In this document: positions 7,410 through 50,588 of the stretch, piece by piece
How positions within the stretch are numbered: the stretch's first letter is position 1
Layout: every line of letters starts with the position of its first letter
Assembly (NCBI GenBank): GCA_938004075.1
Contig: CALKWP010000127.1
Coordinates: 1 to 50,588 of the forward strand
From: an uncultured Methanomassiliicoccales archaeon
GTDB lineage: Archaea; Thermoplasmatota; Thermoplasmata; SG8-5
Length of the DNA: 50,588 nt
Direction of reading: 5' to 3'
Program-made: the position numbers and the translations under genes
The notes under the pieces: model-generated
The model's input: the letters and a program-made list of their open reading frames with translations, nothing else
Told to the model about the DNA's origin: nothing
Databases searched by the model: none

Positions 7410-7562
7410 GATTTCAATCCCGTAACGTGATTTCTTTATTTACATTTTTACATTGCATATTAATTGACATTCAGTGATAATGTATATATATTATATAGGT
7501 ATTCTCCGAAAATACAAAGCGGGCACTCATTTTCGGGAGCCCCAAAAATGGAGGGAGTTGAG

Positions 7563-19500: not shown

Positions 19501-22500
19501 CGCTGAATGCAGCTCCCTGGTCCTGGAACTTCACATTCCCGGACGGCGACGGATACTACGAGCTCTACACAAGGGCCAGTGATGCAGCCGATAACTACGA
19601 AAGCGCGCCAGCCGATGCTGATGCGATATGCGGTTATGATACGGTTAATCCGACCAGCAGCATTGACGCGATATCGCCTTACTGGCAGACATCATCGCCA
19701 ATCAACCTCTCTGCCCAGGGCTCCGACAGCCTGTCAGGCCTAGCATATCTAGATGCCTGGTACAGGTTTGCGCCGGACAACGCAACCTGGACCGCCTGGA
19801 TATTCATAGGCTCTGACCCCACTGCGCCTTACGGAGGGGACTTCAACTTCCCGAACGGCAACGGATATTACGAATTCTATTCAAGAGCCACTGACCTGGC
19901 AGGGAACAATGAGGATATTCCAGCCACAGCCGGCGCGCTGTGTGCATTTGACAGTGATCTACCAATGAGCAATGTGGATGCGATAACGCCATACTGGCAC
20001 ACAACGATGCCGCTCACGGCCACAGCCACAGTGACCGAGGCTCTTTCCGGCATCACATACGTGGAATTCTGGTACAGCCACTCTGCGGATAACATCACAT
20101 TCGGCGCTTACGGCCTGTTCGGCACGGATAACGCCGCGCCCTGGTCCTGGGACTTCGACTTCCCGAGCGGGAATGGATATTACAGGTTCCACTCAAGAGC
20201 CGCAGATCTGGCGGGCAATTATGAGGACGCACCCGCAACAGCCGACGCGATATGCGCCTACGACACAGTCAACCCGACGAGCAGCGTGGATCCAATAGCT
20301 CCATACTGGCAGAACGCATCGCCTCTGATACTGACGGCGACCGCAACCGACATCACGGACGGCATTGCGCAAGTGGAACTCTGGTACCGGTTCGCATCTG
20401 ACAACTCGACATGGGGAGCATGGTCTCTCTTCGGCACGGACAACGCATCGCCCTGGTCCTGGCCATTCACCTCCCCGGATGGAGATGGCTATTACGAGTT
20501 CTACACTAGGGCCACAGACGGCGCTGGCAATTACGAGGATGCGGCAATTTCCGCAGACGCGGCATGCGGTTATGACAGCATCATGCCAATAAGCAGCGCA
20601 GATGCAATCTCCCCGTACTGGCAGACCGCCTCTCCGCTTAACGGGACAGCGACCGCCTCTGACTCTCTCTCGGGCATGGAATCCCTGGAACTCTGGTTCA
20701 GGTTCTCTGTAGATAATGCAACATGGGGCGCATGGACCTATTACGGAACGGATGATGCGGCACCATGGTACGCGAACTTCTTCTTCCCGAACGGCAACGG
20801 ATATTACGAGTTCTACACAATCGCGATAGACAATGCAGGTAACTCCGAGGTTGCGCCTGCGATGGCAGACGCAATATGCGGATTCGACAGCGCGCTCCCG
20901 ATAAGCAGCATAGATGCGATTGCTCCGTACTGGCAGACCGTGAGTTCGCTGAACATCACGGCAACCGCCAGCGCCCTATCCGGCGTCGACACCGTGGAAC
21001 TCTGGTACCGCTTCGCTGTGGATAATTCCACATGGGGCGCATGGACGCTCTTCGGCACGGACAATGCCGCGCCATGGTCCTGGGAATTCACATTCCCTGA
21101 TGGAAACGGATACTATGAGTTCTACTCTAGGGCAACCGATACTGCCACGAACTACGAAGATGCGCCGGCAACTGCAGACGAGATTTGCGCTTACGACACA
21201 ATCGCGCCATCCAGCGAGATGAATGAAGTTCTGGGCTACTGGATATGGATAGGGCCTCTGTGGATGACCGCCACCGCGAACGACACGCTTTCCGGATTGG
21301 CGGACGTTGAATTATGGTACAGATTCTCTGCGGACAACGCGACCTGGGGCGCCTGGACCCTCGGAACGGCCCACGTTGCGCTGTGGAACTGGGATTTCGC
21401 CTTTCCCGAAGGCAACGGTTACTACGAGTTCTACACCAGGGCAACTGACATCGCGGGCAATTACGAGGACGCGCCAATCTCCGCCGATGCGATTTGCGGC
21501 TACGACACGGTAGACCCAACCAGCAGCACAGAAACAATCGCGCCGTACTGGCAGACATCATCGCCGCTGACTATCAACGCCACCGCGAATGATGGGCTGT
21601 CCGGGCTGGCAAGCGTCGAACTCTGGTACAGGCACTCCGCTGATAATATGACCTGGGGCGCCTGGACCCTGTTCGGAACGGACAATGCCGCGCCATGGTC
21701 CTGGGGCTTCGACTTCCCGGACGGTAACGGTTATTACGAGTTCTACACCAGGGCAACTGATGATGCCACGAACTACGAGGATGCGCCGGCTTCCGCTGAC
21801 GTGGTCTGCGCATTCAGCAGCTCGGCCCCCATAAGCAGCGTCGACGCAATCGCGCCGTACTGGCAGACAGCGTCTCCCTTGGCCGTAACGGCAACTGCCA
21901 GCGCCCTCTCCGGCGTTGACACCGTGGAACTATGGTACAGGTTCTCCGCAAACAATGGGACATGGGGCGCCTGGACGCTCTTCGGAACGGACGATGCCGC
22001 ACCATGGTCCTGGATATTCAATTTCCCGAATGGCAATGGTTATTACCAGTTCTACACCAGGGCACGGGACACAGCCACCAACTACGAGGCTGCGCCTGCC
22101 TCGGCAGACAGGGCATGCGCATTCGATAATGCCGCGCCCACAAGCACTGCAAGCGCAATAACCCCATACTGGCGCACAGCATCGCCGGTAACAGTGACGG
22201 CCACCGCAAGCGACATTACCGACGGCGTTGCGACAGTTGAACTGTGGTACAGGTATTCTACCGATAATGCGACCTGGGGCGCCTGGACCCTCTTCGGAAC
22301 CGATAACGCGGCGCCCTGGTCCTGGAACTTCGGTTTCCCCGGTGGCAACGGATATTATGAATTCTATTCAAGAGCATACGACGCTGCAGGCAATTATGAG
22401 AATGCCCCCGGCGCAAGGGACTCGCTCTGCGCCTTCGACAGTGCGGCCCCGGCAAGCACCGTGGACTCAATCATCCCCTACTGGCAGACCTCATCTCCGC

Positions 22501-38781: not shown

Positions 38782-38823
38782 TTCGTCACTCACATCATGA
38801 TCAATCGAATGCCTGGGCGGTTT

Positions 38824-39029
38824 GCGGGATAATGTAATTTGAGGTTGCATTATCCCGCCTCCGGCGAGGCATCATACGTCGCTCCCGTCAAATCTAACAA
38901 AAGATTGTTCTCGCTCCAGGTCTGCGCTTCGCTAACATACGGCTGTGTGCCCTACGACGATATAACGTTCTCATGTGCTTTGTGAATAAACGTGTTTGGC
39001 GGTTACGCCCGCCCTTGCGCCCCTCCGCT
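38824..39029 (+). repeat. Structured repeat element, copy 0 (3' portion only: hairpin 2, conserved core, variant-1 3' arm)
   Basis: An 11-bp hairpin GCGGGATAATG/CATTATCCCGC (38824-58) is followed by CTCCGGCGAGGCATCA. After that come an identical run of about 50 nt (38910-38959 = 46152-46201) and one of about 42 nt (to 39029), both shared with copy A. The copy lies immediately downstream of dphB at the compositional boundary. Confidence 0.8.
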
Positions 39030-39229
39030 TCCAACGAATTTGCTTCGCTCATTCGCCTGAATTTTCTCGCCATGCTCGAAAATGACCCCCTTTCTGCGGA
39101 AAGCCCGCATGCTCGGGGCGCCTTGAATACTTTGGGCCGATGCAATCATACTTATTTAAATTGTCCATTGGAAGGGGTGCTGTCCATCGCGAAGTCGGCA
39201 TCATAAGGTATACGCCTCCGTCTGTGAAG

Positions 39230-40135
39230 TCAGGGGTCATTTTTTCCTTCCGCATTTCCTTGAGTAATTAAGTTCCTCTCTTTTCGCCTTTTTATATACA
39301 AATTGAAAAAGGCGAACGTTTCGATAGATACCCCGATAATTATAAGACAAAAGGACAAAATATAATTACCCTCGTTGAAATACCACAACATTACCCCCAT
39401 TGTCCAAATAATTCCACCGATTATTAAATATAATATAAACAGATGGGAAACCTCTAATTTTTTTCTTTCTTGTTCAGTTGTCACCTTTATATCTTGTTTG
39501 CTTGATTTCTTACCAGGAATGTCTTTATCCTTCAGTTCTTTTAATTCTTTTATACGATATCCCCTCTGCTGTGCGAATGAAAGGAACCAATGAGTACTAG
39601 TAAATAAAATATTTCGTAATAATATGATGAGTGGAATGAATATTGCAACTAAGAACACTATAGGGGTCCAACCTCCGACAATAGGCAGTAGCCAGTATCC
39701 AATTATCACCGAGCAGAACAAACAACCATAGAAGAATATCCAAGCAATAATTGCAGACAATAACTGACCTGGAACTCTGTTGTGCTTCCCGTGTATTGTG
39801 ACGAACCTAATTATTTCGTTAAAATACTCAAGATTTGCCTCTTCATTCCCTGCGAAGAGGGATTTGTTAATGAGTTCTTTAAGGACATTAATGTCTTGAC
39901 AGGCTTCAAGTCCCGGTTCCATTGCAAGTAGTATAAAGCTATATGCGATTAGGTAACTTAACATAATCTCAAATGGATAATCCAAACCGAATAACAGAAA
40001 ATAGATTGCTGGTAGGATAAAGCCAAGAAAGAAAAGGATATAAAATGCCTTGCTTATGCGGTCTCCCTTAGTCCAGATTATTTGCGATATCTCTCTGAAA
40101 TGAGATTCATCTTCTAAAGGGTATTCCTTGTTCAT
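39230..40135 (-). CDS. Polytopic membrane protein, putative immunity partner of the Rhs toxin
   Basis: About 300 aa with at least 6 hydrophobic segments. ATG 40133-40135 overlaps the Rhs TAA by one base (TAATG), which implies translational coupling. AT-rich. The immunity role is inferred from position only. Confidence 0.6.
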   Translation of the reverse strand: MNKEYPLEDESHFREISQIIWTKGDRISKAFYILFFLGFILPAIYFLLFGLDYPFEIMLSYLIAYSFILLAMEPGLEACQDINVLKELINKSLFAGNEEANLEYFNEIIRFVTIHGKHNRVPGQLLSAIIAWIFFYGCLFCSVIIGYWLLPIVGGWTPIVFLVAIFIPLIILLRNILFTSTHWFLSFAQQRGYRIKELKELKDKDIPGKKSSKQDIKVTTEQERKKLEVSHLFILYLIIGGIIWTMGVMLWYFNEGNYILSFCLIIIGVSIETFAFFNLYIKRRKERNLITQGNAEGKNDP

Positions 40136-43100
40136 TACAAACAACCTGCTTGTCTAAGACGCCAAGCTCCATATAATCCAGAGATTAATATCCCTATCAA
40201 GGGCAATATAGTTCCCCAAGAGATAAATTTAAGTCCCATAAAAGCGCTTTTTGCTATTACCTGCCACCAAGGAAGTGATTGTATCCATTTGATACTAATC
40301 CAAACGAATATACTCAATGCAATGCCTGCAAATGCCCATATATCACTGAAAATGGCTGCGGTAATTGTACTCCATTTCCACACGGTCATTAAATTGTAAG
40401 ACAAGCTTTCTATGAAAGAAAGTTTTGCAGCAATACCAATTGCGGAAAAGAACATATTTATAAAAAACATAGACCATTTTAAAGCACATAGGCCTGCAAA
40501 ACTAAGCAATCCAGTCGGGTCCACTCGATTAACTGGATTCCATCCAACATATGCATACATATTGGGGCCATCCACCATTCCTGCCGGGTCCTGCTGCATG
40601 AACCTCCCGATGTCGGGCGAATATGCCCTGGCGCGGTAGTGGTACAGCCCGCTTTCAGCGTCATATTGCCGACCGGTGAACTGGTGCGGGTTGTAAACGA
40701 GTTCGTTGCGAACCAACGCCTCCCCGAAGGGCGTGTAGCGGTACGTGTTGACCACATTCTCGCCCGAGTCAATAAGTTCTGAAACGCTGCCCAGCCCATC
40801 ATACAGATAATAATACTTCACCCCGTCGATTGAGATGCTGATCGGATGGTCCACGAATATGAGCTTACCCCCGCCGCAACCGCTGCCGCACTTCTGGCCG
40901 CAAGCGCTGGCAGAAGGATGTGTGAATCTCACGAGCTTGTTGTCCCACAGCTCGTAGACCACACTCTCGCCGTCGTAGAGATAGGTGAGGTTGACCACTC
41001 CGGCCTTGCTGACCCTGCGCCCGTCCAGGGCGTAGCCGTATGTTGTGGCGCGGGTATCAACGAGGCTCGGGCTGGTTGAGGGGGCGCTGTTCAGCGTGAC
41101 CGGTCCTTCTCCAACCGAATTTTGCTCGTCACCGCCGCCTCCGCCCCCGACAGTGCCCACCGAGACCAGCATGTTCTGTTTTTGGCCGTTGAGGAAGGTG
41201 GATTGGTAGCCGTAGTATGTATCTCCTTCGACCATATTTCCGTTGTTGTCGTAGATGTAGGTTGTGGTGCCGGATTGCAGCAATTTGTTTTCATCGTCAT
41301 ATACTGACGTTGTAGTTTGACTGCCGCCACTTGAAATCTGGATGGTCGCAATCATGTTGTTGCGGAGGTCATACTGGTACTGTGTTTTGCTGCCGTCCGG
41401 ATAACTCACTCCGATCAGCCGGTTTTCAGCGTCGTATGCATAATTTGTGGTTGCGCCATTTGCCTCTTTTACACTTATACGGTTCGCGTTGTAATTGTAC
41501 CCGTATGTGAAACTCGAAATGATTTGCCCATTTGACTTGACATTCTCTATCTTTGTGAGTACATTCGATTTGGCATATGACTGATATATCTTTGTCCCGG
41601 TCGGATAAGTGGTCTGGACAAGTTGGCCAATGGCATCGTACACATAAGTTGTAATGCCACCGCCAGGAGCGATTACTGATTTTAAACGATTGAGGGCATC
41701 ATAGGTGTAGGTGGTGATCAATCCGAATTGGTCGGTCATTGATATTATGTTTCCATTTTCATCGTACTGGTATGTGATTATATACTGCTGAGAAAGGACA
41801 CCTTCGTCAACAAAAACCCAGGTTTCCCTAGTAACCCGGCCCAATAAGTCAAATTCTTTATTCTGGACAGAAAGTCTTGGGGGTGTGGGCATTTGGGGTC
41901 TTGGTGGGTATATGTATATTTCGTAGTTTGGCGGATAATTGTAACCCTGCCTCTCATTCTGTGTAATCTGGTATGTTATATAGACTGTAATATCGCCGGG
42001 CATTCCCATCTTGGTCACTCTGTTCAATGCATCATATGTGTATGATGTGTTCTGGTCGTTCGCATCTATATATTCAATAAGATTGCCGACCTCGTCATAG
42101 GCCCATGAGTATGTGGAACCCAATGGCGATGTTTCGCTGATTTTTCTGCCCAGCAGGTCATATCCATATTGCCATGTTGAATCTAAGTCTCCGTCATATT
42201 GACTGACGCTCACAAGGTTGCCAATGGAATCATATGAATATCTCGTGTCAGAACCAGCCGCTCCTAATTCCCTAACGCGATTTCCTAGACTATTATACTC
42301 ATAGATTGTCTCATAGTTCATCCGGTCAATGCGTTTTGTCATTCTACCTTCTGCATCATATTGATACCTGATGGCCAGGTTATAGGGGCAATATTCTTCG
42401 ATTATCCTGCCAAGTGCATCATATGTATTTGCCCAGAAGTTGCCAAGTTTATCTTGTTTCTTTATCATGTTGCCGCTGGCATCGTATGTGTAAATATCGA
42501 AAAAGCCCAGCGCATCCGTGATTTTGACAACTCTGTCCATCGCATCATATTCATAATTGGTAATTGCACCGCGCTTGTCTGTTTCTTTAATCAGATGTCC
42601 TTTCACATATTCAAAGGATTTTGTTTTAAGAAGGGCATCTCTCTCAGTTAATTTATTACCGAATACATCATAAGTGTACGTTGTGACCGCCGCATTTCTA
42701 TCAGTAAAACTAAGAAGATTTCCCATAGCATCATATGTATATGATTCAATATTATTCAACGAATCTATCGTTTGAGTCATTCTGCCAAGCGCGTCGTATG
42801 TGTATTGAGTTACGAATCCTCTTGCATCGGTCATTGAAACCTTCTGATTAATGGTGTTATATGAGAAGAATGTGTGGTAGCCCAGAGCGTCAGTTTGTTC
42901 GACGATGTTTCCATGAGCATCATATGTGTATGTAGAAATTCCACCATTCGCACTCGTTTGAGACGTCATGAGGCCATTTGAACTGAACACATATGATGAA
43001 GTATACCCTTCTGAATTGGTTAGACTCAATGGGTTGTTGTTCGCGTCATAGACATAATTGGTTTCTTCACCATTTTTATCAACGGTTTTGATTGGAATAG

Positions 43101-45792
43101 AAAGATAGAGGTTAGGTGTGGCAAAGGTGCTATACACCGTACCTGTTTTTTTGGTTAAGGGATCTTCCCTCTCTATCAGATTCCCAACGGCATCATATTT
43201 GCTTTTCCAGCTAAATCCGCGAGCGTCAGTTTCAAGTTCGGGTTTTAAATCTTTATTAAATGTGATGCTGGTTGAGGTTGTATCGGGGTTAATTATCTTT
43301 ACTGCTGCACCATTTGAATCAAATATTCTTTTTGTCGATTGAGTGTTTGCATTTAATGTCGTGGTTGTGTGACCGGGGTAAACATAAGTGGCTTCATATT
43401 CTACGTAGTACTGGGTTTTCTGTCCTGAATCAAAATAATATTCACCGACGGTGCATTTGGAAATCTTAGAGCACCAATCTGAAGTAGAAGTATATTGATA
43501 TTCTTTGTACAGGCCCAATGGGTTTATAGTCATCACCATTTTGTGTATGGTTGCTGGAGTTAGGATATTATATGAATATCTATATTCGTTGTTCATCGCA
43601 TCTTTTCGGGTTCTTAAATTTCCATTAATATCATAGGTATACGTGTTGGTCCTTCCGGCCGGATCCACTACTGATGTAATTAGATTGCCAGTATAAATCA
43701 AATTAAGATATAACCCAGAATCATCCTCTACTTTAATCAGCCTATAATTACCATCATATGACATGTGAAGTGAGTTGCCGTTTTTGTCTACTATTTCATT
43801 CAGTAAACCTTGTGAACTAAATACCTTTACGCTACCATCTGTAAATCTCAAATTGTAAAAAGTGCCAGCACTAATTATATCTATATTAACACCGGGTGGA
43901 GATGAATATGCACCATTTCCCAAGCTTTCAAATTCGTAAAAGCTTCCATCTCCTGCAATGAAATCCACAAATCCAGTTCTAAATTGTAATTTTTCACCGT
44001 AGTTGAATTGCCAACCATACCCGAATGGTCCATTAATTTCCGAGTTTAAACTATTATAAATTCGTTCCAGTTTTATTGTATGCCCTAATGCTTTGAGCTC
44101 GATATCCAGACTTGTCACCGCGAGATTGCCATTAACCTGATTGATGCCGTCCTGATACTCGTTCCAAGCTACTTTACCTTTGGAACCCACGATGTTTTTT
44201 ATTCTGGGGTCGTAGTTGCTAGACCTTTCGCCGGGAATTTCATCGTCCGATGTTCCTAAGATGCCGTCCTGACCAGCTCTTTCAAATATCATATCTTTGT
44301 CTTTGTCTTGCCAGCCATCATAGAGGCCGTCTTGGCTTGTGTCAGATAGGTAATTTGCTGTCGTGACATCATCAACAATTATTTTTGCATAATTAATATT
44401 AATCTGACCGCCGTTTGATGAAGTGAATTTAAATGGTATGGATATTGTTGTGGCAGCACTGTTTGTATAATACTTGAAGATGTATTCGTTCATTGCTCCT
44501 CGGATTGAACCCAGCCTTAATGTCGCAGTAAAGGGCATTATTGCCCTCCAATCGATGGTGCCATCATTGCCAACATCTAATTGTAAATCATTGATTGGAA
44601 GAGTTGTGCCTGATGCAGGGGTCAGTTCAATCACGGCATTTTGAATAAGGTAATTATTAAACGATGAAACAGTAAACGATAATGTTGTAATGGTGGATGG
44701 GTTGGTTGATATGCCTGTAATCGGATTGAAAGCTGTTTTTGTTAATTCAGTAACGGCATTTGTAACGGGCTGTGTGTCTTCGCTTAGATCTGTGAGCCCG
44801 TCACCGTCGCTATCCGACTGGCTTGCGTCTGCCTGGGTGTAAACACTGAAATGTTCAACATATGCCCACACATAGCCATCATCTTGGTTTATGCCAGTAT
44901 ATTCTCCATTTTCCCAATCCGTTACAACTACCCAATTATCGCCGACCTGTCTGTACATTCTCAAACATTCGCTGGTCAGCGTTGCCGGAACATTTTCAGT
45001 GATTGGCATCTTAATTATTGCTTTAAATTCGGTTGACGTATCAACGTTTATGTCAATATATTCTCCAGTTGAAACACTAAAATTACCGCTGGTTGATTCT
45101 ACGGTCGGGACAATGTTATCTTCTCCGGAATAATCGACAGCAACTGTTACTCCGAGGTCATTGTCTGTGGCGATGACATCCGGGGTCATGTCAATCGCGA
45201 AATTGTCCGTGTTGTAAATCATCGGTTCGGCATCGCTGATGTCTGGAATCAAATCACAATCAATGTCAGCGGTTAATGCTAATGAACCGGAGCGGACCCA
45301 TGAAAAAGAAACAATTCCTTCGCCCGCAACCATGTCCAGATTGGGCGCAACTGGCCACGGTGCAGCCCCACCGTATCTTGGAGATGTGAATGAAATACCA
45401 TGATCTGAACTGCCTGCATACCAGTATTTGTTATCGTGCCAGGCTTCCTCGATCCACGACACATAGATTATTCCGGTGGTCTCATCAATAGAGACCTGGG
45501 GCCAATGAGAATTTAATTCGGAATAACTAATCTGAACGGGGGAATTCCATGCGTGCCCAGGAATTTGGGAACCAATATCATTTTTATAAAATACTTCAGC
45601 TTGCGTGGATATATCATTTTTAATTAATTGGCTATAGACCATGTGAGTATTTCCATTCTCATCAATGAGCGTATCCTGCTGTATAATCATCCCCTCTGAG
45701 CCACGGGCTGCTGCCGCAGGCTGGAATACCATAGCCATCATCGTCAAAACACACAATACCGATATTGTCACGGTTAATAACTTATTTTTCAT
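40135..45792 (-). CDS. Rhs/YD-repeat polymorphic toxin (1885 aa) with a hydrophobic C-terminal tip
   Basis: The protein contains, in order:
- signal peptide MKNKLLTVTISVLCVLTMMAMVFQPAAAA
- Asp-box-like SSDHGISF
- Ca-binding-like DSDGDGLTDLSED
- dozens of YD repeats (YTYDxxGNL, YxYDAxGR...)
- Rhs core end YRARAYSPDIGRFMQQDPAGMVDGPNMYAYVGWNPVNRVDPTGL
- a C-terminal region of about 120 aa with 4 hydrophobic helices. Confidence 0.9.
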   Translation of the reverse strand: MKNKLLTVTISVLCVLTMMAMVFQPAAAARGSEGMIIQQDTLIDENGNTHMVYSQLIKNDISTQAEVFYKNDIGSQIPGHAWNSPVQISYSELNSHWPQVSIDETTGIIYVSWIEEAWHDNKYWYAGSSDHGISFTSPRYGGAAPWPVAPNLDMVAGEGIVSFSWVRSGSLALTADIDCDLIPDISDAEPMIYNTDNFAIDMTPDVIATDNDLGVTVAVDYSGEDNIVPTVESTSGNFSVSTGEYIDINVDTSTEFKAIIKMPITENVPATLTSECLRMYRQVGDNWVVVTDWENGEYTGINQDDGYVWAYVEHFSVYTQADASQSDSDGDGLTDLSEDTQPVTNAVTELTKTAFNPITGISTNPSTITTLSFTVSSFNNYLIQNAVIELTPASGTTLPINDLQLDVGNDGTIDWRAIMPFTATLRLGSIRGAMNEYIFKYYTNSAATTISIPFKFTSSNGGQININYAKIIVDDVTTANYLSDTSQDGLYDGWQDKDKDMIFERAGQDGILGTSDDEIPGERSSNYDPRIKNIVGSKGKVAWNEYQDGINQVNGNLAVTSLDIELKALGHTIKLERIYNSLNSEINGPFGYGWQFNYGEKLQFRTGFVDFIAGDGSFYEFESLGNGAYSSPPGVNIDIISAGTFYNLRFTDGSVKVFSSQGLLNEIVDKNGNSLHMSYDGNYRLIKVEDDSGLYLNLIYTGNLITSVVDPAGRTNTYTYDINGNLRTRKDAMNNEYRYSYNILTPATIHKMVMTINPLGLYKEYQYTSTSDWCSKISKCTVGEYYFDSGQKTQYYVEYEATYVYPGHTTTTLNANTQSTKRIFDSNGAAVKIINPDTTSTSITFNKDLKPELETDARGFSWKSKYDAVGNLIEREDPLTKKTGTVYSTFATPNLYLSIPIKTVDKNGEETNYVYDANNNPLSLTNSEGYTSSYVFSSNGLMTSQTSANGGISTYTYDAHGNIVEQTDALGYHTFFSYNTINQKVSMTDARGFVTQYTYDALGRMTQTIDSLNNIESYTYDAMGNLLSFTDRNAAVTTYTYDVFGNKLTERDALLKTKSFEYVKGHLIKETDKRGAITNYEYDAMDRVVKITDALGFFDIYTYDASGNMIKKQDKLGNFWANTYDALGRIIEEYCPYNLAIRYQYDAEGRMTKRIDRMNYETIYEYNSLGNRVRELGAAGSDTRYSYDSIGNLVSVSQYDGDLDSTWQYGYDLLGRKISETSPLGSTYSWAYDEVGNLIEYIDANDQNTSYTYDALNRVTKMGMPGDITVYITYQITQNERQGYNYPPNYEIYIYPPRPQMPTPPRLSVQNKEFDLLGRVTRETWVFVDEGVLSQQYIITYQYDENGNIISMTDQFGLITTYTYDALNRLKSVIAPGGGITTYVYDAIGQLVQTTYPTGTKIYQSYAKSNVLTKIENVKSNGQIISSFTYGYNYNANRISVKEANGATTNYAYDAENRLIGVSYPDGSKTQYQYDLRNNMIATIQISSGGSQTTTSVYDDENKLLQSGTTTYIYDNNGNMVEGDTYYGYQSTFLNGQKQNMLVSVGTVGGGGGGDEQNSVGEGPVTLNSAPSTSPSLVDTRATTYGYALDGRRVSKAGVVNLTYLYDGESVVYELWDNKLVRFTHPSASACGQKCGSGCGGGKLIFVDHPISISIDGVKYYYLYDGLGSVSELIDSGENVVNTYRYTPFGEALVRNELVYNPHQFTGRQYDAESGLYHYRARAYSPDIGRFMQQDPAGMVDGPNMYAYVGWNPVNRVDPTGLLSFAGLCALKWSMFFINMFFSAIGIAAKLSFIESLSYNLMTVWKWSTITAAIFSDIWAFAGIALSIFVWISIKWIQSLPWWQVIAKSAFMGLKFISWGTILPLIGILISGLYGAWRLRQAGCL

Positions 45793-45840
45793 GTTAATTC
45801 CCCGCTATTAATTTCATTGCTTGAATATTCAAACCTAGGT

Positions 45841-45861
45841 TATAAAGGTTTTGTGAGATTA
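45841..45861 (-). promoter_or_regulatory. Putative archaeal BRE/TATA promoter of cassette 1 (conserved cassette promoter motif)
   Basis: The minus strand reads ATCTCACAAAACCTTTATAACCTAGG, about 50 nt upstream of the Rhs ATG. The same CTCACAAAA + TATA arrangement recurs at 48245-48267 and 50421-50440. Confidence 0.5.
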
Positions 45862-45880
45862 CTCATATTTTCTGTACTAA

Positions 45881-46272
45881 CGACCGCCAAACACTACGGA
45901 TTATTTGCACATTAAAAACGGGCACACAGCCTTAGCCAGTAGACGCTTGCCCCAAGTGAATGCACAAGCCCGGATATAAGGCTTGTGTTCACACTCCCCG
46001 TCCCTTCGTTGTACTCGTGATTGCTCACCGTAACGTTTGGAAGATGGTGGTTCGCAACCGTGCGGTTTCCTGGATTAGCGTCATTGAGAGGACAGAAACC
46101 TCCGGCGAGGCATCACGAGGGCCTATCGTCGCATACATCAAAAAATAGCTCTCGCTCCAGGTCTGCGCTTCGCTAACATACGGCTGTGTGCCCTACGACG
46201 GTAAAACGGTATCATGTGCATATGCTCCGAAACGTGTTTGGCGGTTACGCCCGCCCTTGCGCCCCTCCGCTG
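45881..46272 (+). repeat. Structured repeat element, copy A (variant-1 5' arm, core with two hairpins, variant-1 3' arm)
   Basis: The 5' arm 45882-45950 is complementary to the 3' arm. Paired blocks are CGACCGCCAAACAC / GTGTTTGGCGGT at 46235-46, GGGCACACAGCC at 45921-32 / GGCTGTGTGCCC at 46183-94, and TGCACAT / ATGTGCA. Hairpin 1 is at 45964-45988 and hairpin 2 at 46065-46101. The conserved block GGCGAGGCATCACGAGGGCCTATCG is at 46105-46129. Confidence 0.85.
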
Positions 46273-46443
46273 GCCCCTGGCTACGCCAACCCGCCTGCTC
46301 AAGGCGCTTGGATTATTTGAAAATAATCGAAATTAATGCATTGCTAATAATCCATTCCGATGATGCCGTTCGTTATCAGGCGCACGTACACTGATGAATT
46401 GCTCTCATCCACAACGATAAGATATCCGCATCCGTCCGTGAAT

Positions 46444-46899
46444 TCAGGGGTCATGGGGTTCTTCCTCGGTTATTGATAGAATTATGGAAGGGGGATATAA
46501 TGGTGGCGGAACTCTGGCCATCATATGATTTTGAACATAACAAGAGGATAATAGTGTGAAAACATAAATTAATGAAATCCATGTAAATAAGGCGACGACA
46601 GTACTAATCACTAGTATAATTAGAGAAAGATTGGAGGCTTTATTTCTGTATACTTCATTTGATGAATAATAATGCATATTTATTCCTATACCAAAACCTC
46701 CGATTACTGTGACACTAATTATTATCAAATATGGGTGTATAATGAACGGAAGCACAAAGGGAATAAAAAGAGAAATAAGAACAATAATTAATGAAAAAGC
46801 CAGTGACATAATATCAATCCAATTAACTTGATGTTCTTCGTTATAATCGAAGCTGACAGGTTTTAATGATTTGATATCGCTCCTATTTAAAAGCGGCAT
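46444..46899 (-). CDS. Small polytopic membrane protein, putative immunity partner of the orphan Rhs tip
   Basis: ATG 46899 is preceded by GGAGGG 8 nt upstream. The ORF-track start at 46941 overlaps the upstream gene by 26 nt. There are 4 hydrophobic segments. The last codons and 25 nt of 3' flank are conserved with the 39230 gene. Confidence 0.6.
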   Translation of the reverse strand: MPLLNRSDIKSLKPVSFDYNEEHQVNWIDIMSLAFSLIIVLISLFIPFVLPFIIHPYLIIISVTVIGGFGIGINMHYYSSNEVYRNKASNLSLIILVISTVVALFTWISLIYVFTLLSSCYVQNHMMARVPPPLYPPSIILSITEEEPHDP

Positions 46900-46915
46900 A
46901 ATCTTGACCCTCCAT

Positions 46916-48103
46916 TCAACCACATGTATAGGTCGTTCCAAGGCCTTTCAAATACCACCAAAACAGGTTACACCAGGTATATGCGGTATATCCCGAATAG
47001 AAACGAATATCGCGTCCTACGCGATTTGCAACTTTGTCACATTGAGATTGGGCAGGTGTGTTTGTTTTTAATACTTTCACATCAAAATATTCCTTTGTAT
47101 CTGTAATCTTTTGAGTATAATAATTGGAAAGACCACAAAGATTAATCATTGATGCTGACCAAAGGCAATGTTGATATTTATCATTTTTTCCACCATCTGG
47201 ATCAGATGCCCCATGCGCGGTAATTCCGGCATTAACGGCACACATATTATACGCACATATAAAATAAAATAAAGTGATTGAAATAAGGCTTAACAACAAC
47301 ATTCCGCTCGGATCTACCATGTTGGTGGGGTTATTCCCGACATACGCGTACATATTCGCCCCGTCCACCATCCCGGCCGGGTCCTGCTGCATGAACCGCC
47401 CGATACTAGGCGAATATGCCCTTGCTCGGTAATGATAGAGGCCACTTTCTTTATCAAATTGTCTCCCAGTAAACTGGTACGGATTGTAAACCGTTTCCTC
47501 CTTTACCAACACACTCCCGAAAGGTGAGTACCTGTAGAAATTGACAATAGTCTCATTGGCGTCAATGATCTCAGTAACGCTGCCTAAACCGTCGTATAGA
47601 TAAAAGTACTTAACACTATCAACTATAATTTTAATGGGGTGGTCCACAAAACTGGAGGTAGTGAACCTCACTAGCATATTGTCCCACATCTCGTAAATCA
47701 CGTTCTCGCCATCGTAGAGGTATTTCATGTCCACGTGGCCGGCTTTTCCGACTCTCCTGCCATCGAGCGCGTAGCCATAGGATGTGGCCGGGGTGGTGTC
47801 GTCCTGTGGTTCAGATGGTGCTGTACTGCTCATTGTAACCGGTTCTTCTCCCGCAGACTGCTGTTCATCGCCACCGCCTCCGCCGCCAATCGTTCCGACG
47901 GATATGAGCCCGTTCACCTTGTAGCCGTCCAGGAAAGTGGATTCCGTCAGTCGATTTTTCCTTGGAGATTTATAAAAGATGTATGACTCTCCGTCATCTG
48001 TTCTGATGACGTCGTTCGAAAATGTCCAGCTCATATAAACTGATAATGTATCCTGGTTTACATGGATGTAATACCAACCACCTTCAATAATCTCAATGGT
48101 CAT
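46916..48103 (-). CDS. Orphan Rhs C-terminal module (core end plus distinct toxin tip), 395 aa
   Basis: It is homologous to the last part of the full Rhs (STFLDGYKVNGLISVGTIGGGGGGDEQ...YGYALDGRRVGKAG...YRARAYSPSIGRFMQQDPAGMVDGANMYAYVGNNPTNMVDPSGM). After DPSGM comes an unrelated Cys-rich tip of 125 aa. The N-terminal roughly 50 aa are not Rhs-like. Confidence 0.85.
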   Translation of the reverse strand: MTIEIIEGGWYYIHVNQDTLSVYMSWTFSNDVIRTDDGESYIFYKSPRKNRLTESTFLDGYKVNGLISVGTIGGGGGGDEQQSAGEEPVTMSSTAPSEPQDDTTPATSYGYALDGRRVGKAGHVDMKYLYDGENVIYEMWDNMLVRFTTSSFVDHPIKIIVDSVKYFYLYDGLGSVTEIIDANETIVNFYRYSPFGSVLVKEETVYNPYQFTGRQFDKESGLYHYRARAYSPSIGRFMQQDPAGMVDGANMYAYVGNNPTNMVDPSGMLLLSLISITLFYFICAYNMCAVNAGITAHGASDPDGGKNDKYQHCLWSASMINLCGLSNYYTQKITDTKEYFDVKVLKTNTPAQSQCDKVANRVGRDIRFYSGYTAYTWCNLFWWYLKGLGTTYTCG

Positions 48104-48244
48104 GCTCTTCCTCGCTGATGGAGGGAATGACCCCGGTGATATAAAAAGCTAGCGGGTTTTGGGTCAGTATATCATTCCCTCCCATTTTTTGATGTGCGGT
48201 ACAATGCTGATTCCCCTAAATTTTCACATATTGATAGGTAAACT

Positions 48245-48267
48245 AGGTAATAAATATTTTGTGAGAT
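48245..48267 (-). promoter_or_regulatory. Putative BRE/TATA promoter of cassette 2
   Basis: The minus strand reads ATCTCACAAAATATTTATTACCTAGTT, the same motif and order as at 45841-45861, about 150 nt upstream of ATG 48103. Confidence 0.45.
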
Positions 48268-48311
48268 CTCTCCTATAACTCTCTATTGTTATTATGTTAA
48301 AAATGGATATT

Positions 48312-48622
48312 ACGACCGCCAAACACTACGGATTAAATGCACATTAGAAACGGGCACACAGCCTTAGCCAGTAGACGCTTGCCCCAAGTGAATGCGAAAG
48401 GCAGATAATAAGCCTTTCGTCCCTGCTCCCCGTGCCTGCGTTGTACTTGTCATCGCTCGCTGCGCTCGCAACCGTGCGGAAACCTGTCTTTACGGCGCTG
48501 GCAGGTCGGTTTCCTTCGGCGAGGCATCACGAGGGCCTATCGGCGATAATAACAAAAGATTGCTCTCGGCCCAGCTTCGCTACGGAGTGCCCTACGGAAT
48601 AACGACGAGGGATGGCCTACGA
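48312..48622 (+). repeat. Structured repeat element, copy B (variant-1 5' arm, core, variant-2 3' arm)
   Basis: The 5' 84 nt are about 96% identical to copy A. Hairpin 1 is CGAAAGGC/GCCTTTCG (48395-48419) and hairpin 2 is GGAAACC/GGTTTCC (48478-48514). The conserved 25-mer is at 48518-48542. The 3' arm (GGAGTGCCC at 48584-92, AGGGATGGC at 48608-16) differs from variant 1. Confidence 0.85.
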
Positions 48623-48970
48623 TATTTTTTGTAGCTGATCTAAAGTTATAACTCCTGTAAATACATGCTTACCATATATCACTGTTGGGGTAATTTTGAT
48701 GCCTTTTAATTTAGCATGTATATTGTCCCAAAAACTTGCCTTATCATAAATTACTAATTTCAAACCCTGGTGTTTCGCGAAATCCTCAATGAGTTTCTTT
48801 ACCTTGACTTCATCATCGGATAGCCATTTGTGGATGGAAGTAATGAGTTGTTCATTATATCCGCCGATGCTGCGACGATTGCGAACTTCTTTGATATGTT
48901 CTAAAGGTCGTGTATCTGTCTGGATGTGTTTTTTTGTATGCAGAAACAATTCAATCTTTTTTGGTATCAT
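48617..48970 (-). CDS. Small hypothetical protein (possible thioredoxin-like fold without CxxC)
   Basis: 117-aa AT-rich ORF. The C-terminal LKLVIYDKASFWDNIHAKLKGIKITPTVIYGKHVF resembles the beta-alpha-beta...PT..beta layout of glutaredoxin/thioredoxin-fold proteins but has no redox cysteines. The fold assignment is weak. Confidence 0.5.
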   Translation of the reverse strand: MIPKKIELFLHTKKHIQTDTRPLEHIKEVRNRRSIGGYNEQLITSIHKWLSDDEVKVKKLIEDFAKHQGLKLVIYDKASFWDNIHAKLKGIKITPTVIYGKHVFTGVITLDQLQKIS

Positions 48971-49034
48971 TCATCGCCCTCATAAATAAAGGAAAAGGAG
49001 GGCGATAGGGATATATTTTCGCCCTCATTTAAGA

Positions 49035-50336
49035 TTACAGTCCTATACCGCAGAAAGCAGGATTGTAGCAAAACAGGTTATTTGCACAACACGGCTCGCT
49101 CGGATCGCTTGTATCTAATAGGGTGGCTACAATTTTTCCACTTTCTATTCTTGAACCCATCGCCTCCCAACCGTAATAGGTTCCAATGTTTGGTTGCCCG
49201 GAGTCAATAATTGCTGTTATTTCAGTTTCATTGTTTATTGAGTCGTAGTGCGTAAAAGCATAATTTCCTGGGCTATATATAGAATACTGGAAGAACTGGT
49301 TTAATTCACCATTATTGACCAGGAACGTTGTCAGGAATCGATTGTTCTCTGGTGTTATTGTTATTACACCATTATAATTTATCTCAAGAATACTGTACTC
49401 GAAATGTTGTCTTGTGCTGAGGATCTCAAGAGTTGCCTGTACATACTGTCCTTCGTAGTCTGTAACGGTAAATTGCTCCACTCTTTTGTGCCCATTTTCA
49501 GAAATTATTGTCGAACTAGCCACAAAATCCGATTGTTGGGTATGATCCGCACCCCACATAGAAAATTCATTCGTGTATGGGTTCAGCGAGAAACCTATCT
49601 CGGGCGTTGTGATAACCTTAATCATAATTGTTTGGGAAGCAAGGTCACTCTGCCTCGTTGCACTAAGATAAAATACGGGATTTGTGGTTGTATCAAGTGG
49701 TATTATTGCACTCTCACTCAACTGCACGTTACCTCCTGGTACCGCAGTAACTATTGTTGGCGGCAGGCCTCCAGCAAAGCCCCATCCTTCTGGTATTGTT
49801 GATTCATCTACAGATACAGTGAATACATCTCCAAAGAGCATTTCATTTTTTAGAAAGACTGGCACACTAATTGAAGTTCCCGGTGTTGCTCCAACCGCAA
49901 TCAAACATCTGTGAAATTCATTGTTGTTTTCATCAACTTCCGTTATAAGATTGGTAGTATCAGCAATTGCCTCAAAATTTACCTGGTGTGTGTTAAGGGC
50001 AACAATGGTAGTTTCAATTGCTTTTATTTCTCCTGCTCTAATTGGCGGCTCTACCCATAATTGATATGTTTCAGTTGCCTCTTGCCAAAAGCCAGATAGT
50101 TCTGCATAATGAAGCTCAGCCCAAAATCCATGTTGCACCGATGCTTCACCAATATTCTCCACTGTTACAGTAACCGGTAGAGAATCACCCGTTTCTACGG
50201 GATACACCCAACCAATTCCCCTCACAATTAGGTCTGGTTGTCCTTGTTTTGCCTGAACACTTGATGGTAGAACCATCATTCCACTCAAAAAAACCATGCT
50301 CACAATTATTATTGCTCCAATTCGTGTTTTCTCCAT
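49035..50336 (-). CDS. Secreted CARDB-like domain protein with a Cys-rich C-terminus
   Basis: Signal peptide MEKTRIGAIIIVSMVFLSGMMVLPSSVQA. PDLIVRGIGWVYPVETGDSLPVTVTVENIGEAS matches the CARDB-type motif DL.V......G....V.V.N.G. The C-terminus is EPCCANNLFCYNPAFCGIGL. Confidence 0.7.
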   Translation of the reverse strand: MEKTRIGAIIIVSMVFLSGMMVLPSSVQAKQGQPDLIVRGIGWVYPVETGDSLPVTVTVENIGEASVQHGFWAELHYAELSGFWQEATETYQLWVEPPIRAGEIKAIETTIVALNTHQVNFEAIADTTNLITEVDENNNEFHRCLIAVGATPGTSISVPVFLKNEMLFGDVFTVSVDESTIPEGWGFAGGLPPTIVTAVPGGNVQLSESAIIPLDTTTNPVFYLSATRQSDLASQTIMIKVITTPEIGFSLNPYTNEFSMWGADHTQQSDFVASSTIISENGHKRVEQFTVTDYEGQYVQATLEILSTRQHFEYSILEINYNGVITITPENNRFLTTFLVNNGELNQFFQYSIYSPGNYAFTHYDSINNETEITAIIDSGQPNIGTYYGWEAMGSRIESGKIVATLLDTSDPSEPCCANNLFCYNPAFCGIGL

Positions 50337-50420
50337 GTTATTCCTCCTCCTGTTTCATCGGTGTTCATATCCGTTTCGATGCGTGGTTATGAAACCTAGA
50401 GTTCAAAAAGTTCTTCATAT

Positions 50421-50440
50421 GATAAATAACTTTTGTGAGA
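50421..50440 (-). promoter_or_regulatory. Putative BRE/TATA promoter of cassette 3
   Basis: The minus strand reads TCTCACAAAAGTTATTTATC, about 85 nt upstream of ATG 50336. It shares the CTCACAAAA + TATA layout of the other two cassettes. Confidence 0.4.
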
Positions 50441-50481
50441 AAACTTAAGATACTTTTAAGTACTCTGCGAAAAAGATTGAT

Positions 50482-50588
50482 ACGACAGCCATCCCTTAAC
50501 CGTTTCGTATTAACCGGGCACTCCTCCGCTACACCAAGTGAATGCGAAAGGCAGGATTTAAGCTTTTCGTCCATGCTCCCCGTGTCTG
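50482..50588 (+). repeat. Structured repeat element, copy C (variant-2 5' arm plus start of core; cut by window end)
   Basis: GCCATCCCT (50488-96) and GGGCACTCC (50516-24) are exact complements of copy B 3' arm blocks. They are followed by the conserved CCAAGTGAATGC and hairpin 1 CGAAAGGC/GCTTTTCG (50545-69), which has one G-T pair on the + strand. Confidence 0.8.

Follow-up and report, generated by a model that had tools for sequence, protein, structure and literature searches.

Cassette-specific complementary arms and conserved folded cores in a probable mobile gene cassette array of Thermoplasmata archaea

Among dedicated platforms that accumulate and reshuffle single genes, integrons are, to our knowledge, the only one that is well understood. 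Their attC sites have conserved R''/L''-L'/R' ends and a variable centre, and each site folds on itself. In Archaea, integrons are rare and of the bacterial type. Archaeal integrons have been described by Ghaly et al. (2022; PMC9668308). The window analyzed here, a stretch of 50,588 nt from a Thermoplasmata archaeon, ends in an array (38.8-50.6 kb) with an integron-like layout of which we could find no earlier description; on balance, we read it as the proximal end of a chromosomal mobile gene cassette array of a type found in Thermoplasmata archaea. Like sedentary chromosomal integrons and CALINs (clusters of attC sites without an integrase), such arrays are long, run in one direction and hold small cassettes, most of them with a single gene and with toxin-antitoxin genes well represented; genomes share cassettes and reorder them, gene-less cassettes occur, and the junctions contain foldable imperfect inverted repeats, in which the strand that folds is the one that does not code for the cassette genes. 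Unlike integrons, they have sites of 300-420 nt (57-141 nt in attC) with a conserved centre and variable flanks, the reverse of attC; neither an IntI gene nor an attI site lies beside the array, and the cassettes seem to carry their own promoters.

The array abuts the 3' end of a housekeeping gene, dph5. GC content is ~0.56 up to dph5 and 0.39-0.47 past it, so that an AT-rich array of foreign composition sits in a GC-rich chromosome. Between one cassette and the next lies a conserved, structured core of ~200-300 nt, which runs from CCAAGTGAATGC (the L anchor) through hairpin Pa, the CTCCCCGTCC box, a mid region, CGCAACCGTGCG, hairpin Pb and CTCCGGCGAGGCATCAC to, further on, CTCCAG. A 5' arm precedes the core and a 3' arm follows it. 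The window holds four copies of this element (E0, A, B and C), all on the + strand, and three cassettes:

37987-38781, + strand: dph5 (diphthine synthase)
38796-39007, + strand: E0, whole; compressed to an L-anchor-like remnant, a Pb-type hairpin, CTCCGGCGAGGCATCA and a variant 1 3' arm
38796-38919, + strand: E0 core, the array start, beginning 15 nt past the dph5 stop codon
38920-39007, + strand: E0 3' arm (variant 1), an arm of cassette 1, partner of the 5' arm at 45878-45949
39008-45877, - strand: cassette 1, with RHS toxin, membrane protein and small conserved ORF
39049-39255, - strand: small conserved ORF of cassette 1
45878-46249, + strand: A, whole
45878-45949, + strand: A 5' arm (variant 1), an arm of cassette 1
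45950-46160, + strand: A core
46161-46249, + strand: A 3' arm (variant 1), an arm of cassette 2, partner of the B 5' arm
46250-48309, - strand: cassette 2, with orphan RHS C-terminal module and membrane protein
48310-48621, + strand: B, whole
48310-48381, + strand: B 5' arm (variant 1), an arm of cassette 2
48382-48574, + strand: B core
48575-48621, + strand: B 3' arm (variant 2), an arm of cassette 3, partner of the C 5' arm
48622-50481, - strand: cassette 3, with CARDB protein and thioredoxin-like protein
50482-50588, + strand: C, the part inside the window
50482-50533, + strand: C 5' arm (variant 2), an arm of cassette 3
50534-50588, + strand: start of the C core

Copy A displays the full order: L anchor CCCCAAGTGAATGC (45950-45963), Pa with its AT-rich loop (45962-45988), box CTCCCCGTCC (45994-46003), mid region, CGCAACCGTGCG, Pb (46064-46101), CTCCGGCGAGGCATCAC (46100-46116) and the terminal CTCCAG (46155-46160). 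The box of B reads CTCCCCGTGC (48426-48435), and CTTCGGCGAGGCATCA lies at 48514-48529; C shows the L anchor, Pa and box CTCCCCGTGT (50576-50585), and the window ends within the repeat, 3 nt past the CTCCCCGT box of this copy. E0 proceeds from the L-anchor-like CAATCGAATGC through CTGGGCGGTTTGCG, the Pb-type hairpin (38824-38858) and CTCCGGCGAGGCATCA (38859-38874) to CTCGCTCCAG (38910-38919), without the Pa hairpin and the CTCCCCGT box.

The core is a fold as well as a sequence. In 61 non-redundant cores, Pa and Pb covary, pairing being kept through compensatory changes, and in the conserved helix under Pb G.U outnumbers A.C pairs 28 to 3, an excess that places the fold on the + strand. The Pa loop always contains a TATA-like AT-rich motif, and many 3' arms are followed by a tract rich in A, which reads as a T-tract on the gene strand. 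The core matched no Rfam family at gathering or permissive E-values; a scan of the window and 59 kb of related arrays returned tRNAs only, with no hit over any core, in the window not even at E <= 10. We also considered SRP RNA, RNase P RNA, group I/II introns and ribozymes, and set them aside. A host ncRNA gene as a single-copy integration target was also abandoned: the single-copy pattern matches in soil contigs are chance hits in GC-rich coding sequence. We do not claim the long-range pairings that we built by hand (box/ACGGGG and L anchor/GCATCAC), which lie in invariant columns where covariation offers no test.

If the two arms of a junction need not pair with each other, what do they pair with? 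Duplex energies of the window arms, scored against 200 shuffles, give a consistent answer. The 3' arm of A pairs with its own 5' arm (-65.6 kcal/mol, z -7.7) and equally with the 5' arm of B (-66.5 kcal/mol, z -7.7), and the E0 3' arm pairs with the A 5' arm (-59.2 kcal/mol, z -6.6). The 3' arm of B is at background with its own 5' arm (-24.0 kcal/mol, z -0.4) and reaches only z -1.6 with the A 5' arm, but forms 30 bp, including GGAGTGCCC with GGGCACTCC and AGGGATGGC with GCCATCCCT, with the 5' arm of C (-45.1 kcal/mol, z -6.5). As a rule, the arm that follows a core finds its partner in the arm ahead of the next core, at the other end of the same cassette. The best partner is the same-cassette arm in 59 of 84 cases (18.4 expected) and the junction's own arm in 7; energies are -55/-62 kcal/mol with the next-cassette arm vs -42/-49 with the own arm and -39/-45 with others. 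In 126 cassettes elsewhere, matched arms score -45.9 and mismatched pairs -31.2 (Mann-Whitney p 5e-35), and the helix begins 0-3 nt from the L anchor and directly after CTCCAG. Arm helices are almost purely Watson-Crick (1909 bp, with isolated mismatches of only 2 G.T and 4 A.C), and arm sequences are unrelated between cassettes. Assigning a strand from the arms was given up: the energetic preference for the minus strand is as large in control pairs as in real ones, and wobble pairs are too scarce. Thus, arms move with the cassette and not with the junction: in L008, an arm homologous to the B 3' arm (which in the window overlaps the stop codon of the 117-aa gene) precedes a cassette homologous to cassette 3 (52% identical).

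Under this rule, each "element" consists of the 5' arm of the left cassette, a core and the 3' arm of the right cassette, and hybrid junctions are the norm. The earlier note had recognized B as a hybrid of variants 1 and 2 and C as opening with the partner of the B 3' arm, as the z values above bear out (-6.5 vs -0.4 for B's own arms). Its arm length of about 70-90 nt holds for variant 1 (~72-90 nt, 44-48 bp paired) and not for variant 2 (~48-52 nt); A does fold on itself, as it had noted, but solely because cassettes 1 and 2 both carry variant 1 arms. Its scheme of a single variant 2/variant 2 circle entering a resident variant 1/variant 1 element proves too narrow, hybrid junctions being normal across loci. 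Nor is a variant 1 arm predicted beyond the window: the 3' arm of C should match the 5' arm of whichever cassette comes next, and the array should end in a terminal junction of the AAGTCAC...CCCCGCCC/TAACAGACGAGG type.

This pairing separates the junctions from attC, in which the two halves of one site fold together; here own-arm pairing is at background, and the two arms of a junction come from different cassettes, which puts the exchange point in the middle of the site and not at its edge. Modules of Acinetobacter plasmids bounded by pdif (XerC/XerD) sites are likewise discrete, have inverted symmetry around each module and pass between replicons without a module-encoded recombinase, yet pdif sites are 28 bp long and the same at each boundary, whereas these arrays have cassette-unique inverted parts with a large direct-repeat core between them. 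Could the arms instead serve RNA? A long transcript might fold with the arms as processing stems, like archaeal rRNA stems or bulge-helix-bulge sites, and release or circularise cassette RNAs, the core being a structured RNA. Covarying core hairpins, G.U pairs on one strand and stems that enclose whole cassettes would fit. Near-pure Watson-Crick arm helices are unlike RNA helices, however; the 5' arm contains the promoter-like TATA boxes, which would leave gene transcripts one arm short; and the folded strand is antisense to the genes, while cassette shuffling between genomes would go unexplained. We regard processing at the RNA level as improbable.

What do the cassettes carry? Cassette 1 encodes an RHS-repeat toxin (40135-45792, 1885 aa; Pfam RHS_repeat 2.4e-90, DUF6531) and a 304-aa membrane protein (39230-40144) that is probably its immunity protein. 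Cassette 2 encodes a 165-aa membrane protein (46444-46941) and, at 46916-48103, a 395-aa orphan RHS C-terminal module that shares 60% identity with the end of the cassette 1 RHS core. The pair resembles rhs loci with orphan C-terminal toxin/immunity modules, in that a full RHS gene with an immunity-like gene adjoins an orphan with its own partner; unlike in rhs loci, full gene and orphan occupy separate cassettes, each bracketed by arms and cores. Cassette 3 encodes a CARDB-domain surface protein (49035-50336, 433 aa) and the thioredoxin-like protein of 117 aa (48617-48970). As the same junction elements flank unrelated genes, the RHS genes are cargo and do not account for the repeats.

Inverted repeats that bracket each cassette invite comparison with small cut-and-paste transposons and MITEs: the arms would be terminal inverted repeats of elements that repeatedly targeted a pre-existing, tandemly repeated core, and a CGCT(AC)G-like motif does occur on both core-proximal sides. 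Such elements should leave target-site duplications, but no cassette-specific one is seen (direct-repeat p 0.13 vs 1e-21 for complementarity), and the arms, unrelated in sequence, offer no common transposase binding site and no shared terminal repeat. These two features largely refute the idea. Cassettes were found in arrays only, in pattern scans that are blind to dispersed copies without a core; cassettes contain no transposase, and homologues of the CARDB gene on larger contigs (L105-L111) lie outside arrays, with neither cores nor arms. We give cut-and-paste transposition hardly any credence.

The wider behavior of the arrays emerges from 102 related loci in Thermoplasmata/Methanomassiliicoccales MAGs and metagenomes, comprising 227 junction cores and 137 cassettes. 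Cores have one orientation within every locus and reach 10 per 12 kb; the median cassette is ~640 nt long. The longest ORF of a cassette is antisense to the core in 113 cases and sense in 6 (thus antisense in 113 of 119 gene-bearing cassettes) and absent in 18, some cassettes consisting of arms only. Toxin-antitoxin genes abound (ParE/RelE, PIN, HicA/B, MazE, RHH). The same cassettes, with their arms, recur in other genomes beside different neighbours. Turnover of cassettes among relatives, which the earlier note had made a test of its reading, is seen at dph5 itself: the close relatives L112 and L117 have different cassettes there, and the more distant L113 and L115 have no array. Contigs of the closest dph5 relatives are all 4-5 kb long; among the loci fetched none is near-identical to the window, and exact-protein look-up of three window genes gave no match. 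The element had no match in IMG/VR (pattern scan), PLSDB or INPHARED, as would not be expected of an integrated virus or plasmid.

Where do cassettes part company? In six near-identical sequence pairs, the sequence switches sharply inside the core: at the CTCCCCGTCC box in L032/L075, L015/L102, L086/window A and an internal duplication in L012, and at the CCAAGTGAATGC L anchor in L055/L098 and L085/L102. These motifs are short and conserved (10 and 12 nt, respectively). Joins made at repeats by metagenome assembly could mimic some switch points. Together, switch points, sharing and turnover support cassettes recombining through the core. Several observations sit less easily with a cassette model: switch points fall at two places flanking Pa and not at one, arrays begin raggedly, their first cores being cut short at varying positions, and strong conservation over 200-300 nt goes far beyond what known recombinases need.

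Must there be dedicated machinery at all? The core could be a repeated intergenic element, for instance a small structured RNA gene or a terminator/promoter unit, in which case homologous recombination between its many direct copies would loop out, reinsert and shuffle the contents and the arms would have a separate local function. Cores are direct repeats of 200-300 nt with long identical stretches per genome, good substrates for such exchange; breakpoints occur at more than one place, no recombinase lies nearby, and the TATA-like motif in the Pa loop and the A-rich tract after many 3' arms suit a promoter/terminator unit. Core segments, moreover, are mosaic and genome-specific, resembling gene conversion, and assort approximately independently of arms between genomes, as concerted evolution or homologous recombination would have it. 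(Linkage of core segments with arms over all junction pairs was set aside, being confounded by genome-specific core homogenisation.) Recombination between cores does not explain private complementary arm pairs that abut core boundaries, strict array polarity or the persistence of gene-less, arm-only units; switch points fall at two short conserved motifs and not randomly in the longest identical stretches; and an RNA gene would sit poorly with the Rfam result. We consider this explanation unlikely. The earlier note's recombination inside the core is supported by the switch points and by cassette sharing, but site-specific exchange is not separated from homologous recombination between cores.

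A cassette consists of a cassette-specific 3' arm, one to three opposite-strand genes, apparently with their own TATA-like promoter, and a complementary 5' arm. If a dedicated enzyme does move the cassettes, we envisage the following. Strand exchange between L anchor and box, in the 5' part of the core, would release a cassette and insert it; the free form would be a circle bearing a single intact site, made up of 5' arm, core and 3' arm. The two arms, being matched, would anneal to a long stem, which would close off the folded core and display it. The whole would resemble an attC site of very large size and would probably be recognized in single-stranded form, as the folded + strand. Exchange in the core would make every array junction a hybrid, as in attL and attR, and, since each cassette has arms of its own, these could also see to it that the sites brought together are those on either side of one cassette. 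The circular and empty-site products that the earlier note anticipated were not seen: the fetched contigs include no circular single-cassette contig and no exact filled/empty pair. The enzyme would presumably act in trans, a Y1/HUH IS200-type transposase and a tyrosine recombinase being the candidates. The nearby recombinase that the note expected did not materialize: a Pfam scan of all large window ORFs found no Phage_integrase and no recombinase in the 50.6 kb, and none stands consistently beside arrays elsewhere. A tyrosine recombinase as the general partner was rejected, as only L002 of ~100 related loci has one within a few kb of the array start.

A Y1 enzyme raises a different prospect: the cassettes might be cargo-carrying, non-autonomous relatives of IS200/IS605 (PATE-like), moved single-stranded by "peel and paste", with the unit ending in Pa, a CTCC cleavage/target motif ~9 nt on, and insertion 3' of CTCC yielding head-to-tail arrays. 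IS200/IS605 and PATE elements share with the arrays folded, hairpin-bearing ends that are strand-specific, a motif a few nt 3' of the hairpin where cleavage may occur, and insertion into a fixed short motif that leaves no target duplication; here, too, the core fold is strand-specific and all units face one way. E0 joins its hairpin directly to CTCC/GGCGAGG, and other array starts join theirs to (C)TCC/CCGT. At the array borders, TnpA genes (Pfam Y1_Tnp) lie 1-3 kb past the last box, near the distal end of four arrays (CAY3, L012, L066 and the family-2 contig L027), and another is found in L111:

L012:3130-3576: array-linked TnpA

Three of the four arrays share a syntenic flank, so independent observations are few. 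The dph5 3' flank of array-less relatives carries a solo IS200-type right end (3e-25), and the window array itself seems to start within a remnant of such an end, at a GAATGC motif. Against common descent, IS ends and core have no significant similarity: blastn of tnpA flanks against window junctions gave 8-15 nt (E >= 0.05), and nhmmer with the core profile found nothing in tnpA flanks. The window has no TnpA, and breakpoints occur also at the L anchor. Unlike the arrays, IS200/IS605 elements have no long complementary arms linking their ends, and they form dispersed copies where we see tandem arrays with unrelated cargo genes. We therefore doubt that the cassettes are themselves IS200/IS605 relatives and rate this as distinctly unlikely.

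Returning to a dedicated exchange system, we tentatively suggest, short of calling it probable, that the arrays may represent a new class of archaeal gene capture, in which the core of a 300-420 nt folded site is the substrate of a putative strand-transfer enzyme, possibly a domesticated Y1/HUH transposase, and the complementary arms serve as address labels by which the two ends of a cassette are brought together; such a system would differ in mechanism from integrons and play the same evolutionary role in Thermoplasmata. Were this true, widespread arrays with their own large junctions and arm pairs would amount to a second way of capturing genes, arrived at independently, and would explain hypervariable islands and broken assemblies in such genomes. 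The core motifs and the arm rule would then provide a sequence handle for finding the enzyme, and one that reads a long programmable stem beside a conserved fold might attract interest as a tool.

Two observations concern the array ends. An apparent inverted core fragment at the array end was dismissed as an 11-nt chance match. At the start, E0, which lies beyond the range of the earlier note, is a fourth, truncated copy; its orthologue at L112:2610-2700 retains the hairpin stem, with compensatory changes.

The left 38.8 kb of the window, with a GC content of 0.54-0.59, codes for archaeal housekeeping genes (among them those for a P-type ATPase, tRNA-Thr, an ABC transporter, dCTP deaminase and Trm5) and giant surface proteins. 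Two predicted giants, at 7464-13817 and 16551-25739 (2117 and 3062 aa), are both made of long in-frame tandem repeats: ~987-nt units at 8487-11261 in one, with 100% identity over 241 nt between some copies, and at least 11 units of 309-312 nt at 19045-23074 in the other, at 60-74% identity. From 38.8 kb to the window end, GC drops to 0.39-0.47, all sizeable genes lie on the minus strand, and the gene groups are set apart by four structured repeat copies, here called junctions; in a full junction, a core of ~195-210 nt stands between a 5' arm and a 3' arm. Three cassettes, the first of a Thermoplasmata cassette array, lie in the window:

37987-38781, dph5 (diphthine synthase)
38796-39007, plus strand, junction E0
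E0 to A, cassette 1: RHS toxin of 1885 aa with a membrane partner
45878-46249, plus strand, junction A
A to B, cassette 2: orphan RHS C-terminal module, likewise with a partner
48310-48621, plus strand, junction B
B to C, cassette 3: CARDB surface protein and thioredoxin-like protein
50482 to window end, plus strand, junction C

The RHS core end of the cassette 1 toxin (40544-40843) recurs in the cassette 2 orphan (47337-47636; 70% in DNA, 60% in protein over 267 aa); this main-plus-orphan rhs arrangement is classic, but in the window the two parts make up different cassettes, each flanked by arms. After the immunity-like gene, both RHS cassettes carry a small minus-strand ORF starting MTP(D/E)FTDG (39049-39255 and about 46395-46460), and ~100 nt around it are also kept where the first cassette begins in three related loci (L008, L009, L112). 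In all three window cassettes, TTTTGTGAGA (read on the gene strand, TCTCACAAAA) adjoins a TATA-like box between the 5' arm and the first gene (45849-45858, 48257-48266, 50432-50441); the motif looks like a putative promoter element common to the three, and was not seen at the equivalent position in L008 and CAY3, another related locus.

Arm duplex energies, scored against shuffled controls, bear out the earlier note's view of copy B as a hybrid with a variant-1 5' arm and a variant-2 3' arm: its 3' arm pairs with its own 5' arm at only -24.0 kcal/mol (z -0.4) and with that of C at -45.1 kcal/mol (z -6.5), so that B is a hybrid and the arm with which C opens is indeed the one complementary to B's 3' arm. 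The 3' arm of E0 pairs with the 5' arm of A (-59.2 kcal/mol, z -6.6), and that of A with the 5' arm of B (-66.5 kcal/mol, z -7.7) and with its own (-65.6 kcal/mol, z -7.7). E0, A and B share one rule: the 3' arm matches the 5' arm at the far side of the following cassette. Copy A can fold on itself for the sole reason that the two cassettes beside it (1 and 2, both of RHS type) have the same arm variant. The v1-core-v2 hybrid is there, as had been proposed, but is not peculiar to the window, since every junction in an array is a hybrid by the same rule; nor does this rule imply the variant-1 3' arm predicted past the window end.

The arm-variant observation is real and more general than the earlier note stated. 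In the first 14 related loci, the best partner of a junction's 3' arm was the 5' arm of the junction that follows (mean -55 kcal/mol on the plus and -62 on the minus strand), compared with -42/-49 for its own 5' arm and -39/-45 for unrelated arms. Across 126 cassettes, same-cassette pairs average -45.9 kcal/mol versus -31.2 with arms of other contigs (p 5e-35); the same-cassette arm ranked top in 59 of 84 tests (18.4 expected) and the own-junction arm in 7 (18.2 expected). In these 126 cassettes the arm helix starts 0-3 nt from the L anchor (the left end of the core) and directly after CTCCAG (its right end), and therefore abuts the core at both sides. Core-adjacent complementarity is cassette-specific (p 1e-21); core-adjacent direct repeats are not (p 0.13), and there is therefore no target-site duplication. 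The arm helices are nearly pure Watson-Crick (1909 bp; isolated mismatches, 2 G.T and 4 A.C), and for this reason look like DNA inverted repeats, unlike an RNA helix. Every junction is thus the 5' arm of the left cassette, a conserved folded core and the 3' arm of the right cassette. A GC-rich module (CGCCCGCCCTTSCGCYCCTCCGCTG...TGGCTRCGCCAACCC...TGCTC) lies 3' of the 3' arm in some cassettes only, irrespective of arm variant (window 39007-39029 and 46249-46310; also L001, L010 and L003).

How widespread is the core? When one genome per species was scanned for its pattern, matches turned up in MAGs of Thermoplasmata/Methanomassiliicoccales, with several on each contig, and a metagenome scan added 90 stretches; once chance matches in GC-rich soil contigs were taken out, 227 cores in 102 loci were counted. 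Within any locus the cores are all on one strand, with a maximum of 10 per 12 kb. They form two sequence families (~212-245 nt and ~260-295 nt), which have in common CCAAGTGA, C(T/A)CCCCGTCCCTTCGTTG.ACTCGTG, CCGTGCG, CTCCGGCGAGGCATC and other motifs. The core had no match in Rfam, IMG/VR, PLSDB or INPHARED, and a literature search returned no described system matching it, only classical IntI/attC integrons, archaeal ones included. One locus with typical arrays, L008 (DHFN01000049.1), is assigned to a bacterial MAG (Anaerolineales UBA4823), and is therefore probably a binning error; L006 (DEXG01000003.1; Phycisphaerales UBA3190) matched the scan pattern, perhaps by chance, since no core came up there in profile searches.

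Among 61 non-redundant family-1 cores, pairing in two hairpins, Pa and Pb, is kept via many double changes (up to 33 of the 61 sequences at one pair), and all Pa variants have an AT-rich, TATA-like loop. An invariant helix lies under Pb, CTCG..CCG.G.G[Pb]C.CCGG.CGAG; its excess of G.U over A.C pairs (28 versus 3) places the fold on the plus strand, opposite to the one that codes for the cassette genes. Taken whole, copy A gives a better fold than its shuffles on both strands (z about -4).

Where in the junction are cassettes exchanged? In six pairs of near-identical sequences (97-100%), divergence sets in abruptly inside the core: four switch at the CTCCCCGTCC box, immediately 3' of Pa (L032/L075, L015/L102, an internal duplication in L012, L086/window A), and two at the L anchor, immediately 5' of Pa (L055/L098, L085/L102). 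At several array starts a different hairpin is fused straight to the box, and in window E0 the hairpin is joined to CTCCGGCGAGG, which has CTCC in common with the box. These switch points and joins fit exchange within the core's 5' part, in line with the earlier proposal of recombination inside the core, although some of the switch points could instead be products of assembly across repeats. Two further caveats apply: the hot spots number two rather than one, and from genome to genome the segments of the core are homogenised and assort without regard to the arms.

Measured from the right anchor of one junction to the L anchor of the following one, the median length is 637 nt (10th-90th percentile 276-1152). 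Of 137 cassettes, 113 have their longest ORF antisense to the core and 6 have it in sense, while 18 have none. Among the proteins, Pfam finds ParE/RelE, PIN, HicA/HicB, MazE/AbrB and RHH members, as well as GrpB, MBL-fold, NYN, DsrE and thioredoxin-like ones. Arm-only units occur (e.g. L012:386-505); this gene-less ~120-nt "cassette", a long imperfect hairpin alone with a T-arm-like GGGGTTCGAAGCCTC segment inside, is conserved across two metagenomes (also L020, about 1130-1225). Identical or similar cassettes recur with their arms across genomes, with changed neighbours (CAY3/L007, CAY3/L012, CAY3/L009, L004/L014, window cassette 3/L008). Non-array homologues of the cassette 3 pair (CARDB and small protein) lie in two unrelated contigs, L105:10001-13364 and L110:163-2993, followed in both by a tyrosine recombinase gene and preceded in L105 by a Cdc6/Orc1 gene; these neighbours suggest that the pair is carried by an integrative element as well.

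In keeping with the earlier idea of cassette integration, relatives differ at the dph5 locus. In the closest found, L112 (dph5 93% identical), the array also directly follows dph5, and a HicA/HicB cassette and an RHH gene precede a junction orthologous to E0, with identical hairpin loop, compensatory stem changes and the same v1 3' arm; the first 100 nt of cassette 1 are the same as in the window. L117 (88%) has no canonical core within 3 kb and other small minus-strand genes instead. The array is absent from L113 (79%) and L115/L116 (75%), which retain the upstream gene order and have a tRNA or RPA-like gene, preceded by a solo IS200-type right end. Other arrays start after argF, eIF6 or apgM, the first core being truncated at varying points.

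Most likely this is an integron-like capture system in which cassettes are exchanged through the core; a circular cassette would bear a self-complementary site of 300-420 nt. Judged by the features that define integrons, it is not one: IntI and attC architecture are missing here, and exchange is mid-site. The folded form would be either single-stranded DNA or RNA.

Which enzyme might act on the core? A recombinase was predicted nearby, but the window encodes neither recombinase nor transposase; elsewhere, a tyrosine recombinase lies 2.3 kb from one array start (L002), the only such case among the fetched loci. IS200-type Y1 transposase genes lie 1-3 kb past a conserved terminal junction (AAGTCACGC...CATACCCCGCCC|TAACAGACGAGG) in CAY3, L012 and L066, which have one tRNA-Phe flank in common, and the family-2 contig L027 also has such a gene. 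IS200-type ends have no significant similarity to the core. L012:3130-4320 holds two IS200-type tnpA genes in tandem, of which one is intact and the other partial; behind each lies a structured right end of ~200 nt, and this end occurs solo, directly after dph5, in array-less relatives (L115:10795-11120, L113:10795-10870). As a lead, the window array seems to begin within a remnant of an IS200-type end.

The three nearest dph5 relatives (93, 88 and 86% identical) are on contigs of 3.9-4.9 kb and more distant ones on contigs of 27-144 kb, consistent with assembly breaks in the repeat-rich array after dph5 in this lineage. In L064 (6264-6512), the tRNA-Leu 3' end (TCCCTTCTCCCGCAC) is duplicated ~150 nt downstream, the signature of an integrative element at the tRNA; shortly after it comes an array with a single cassette, ~5 kb long and with v1-type arms.
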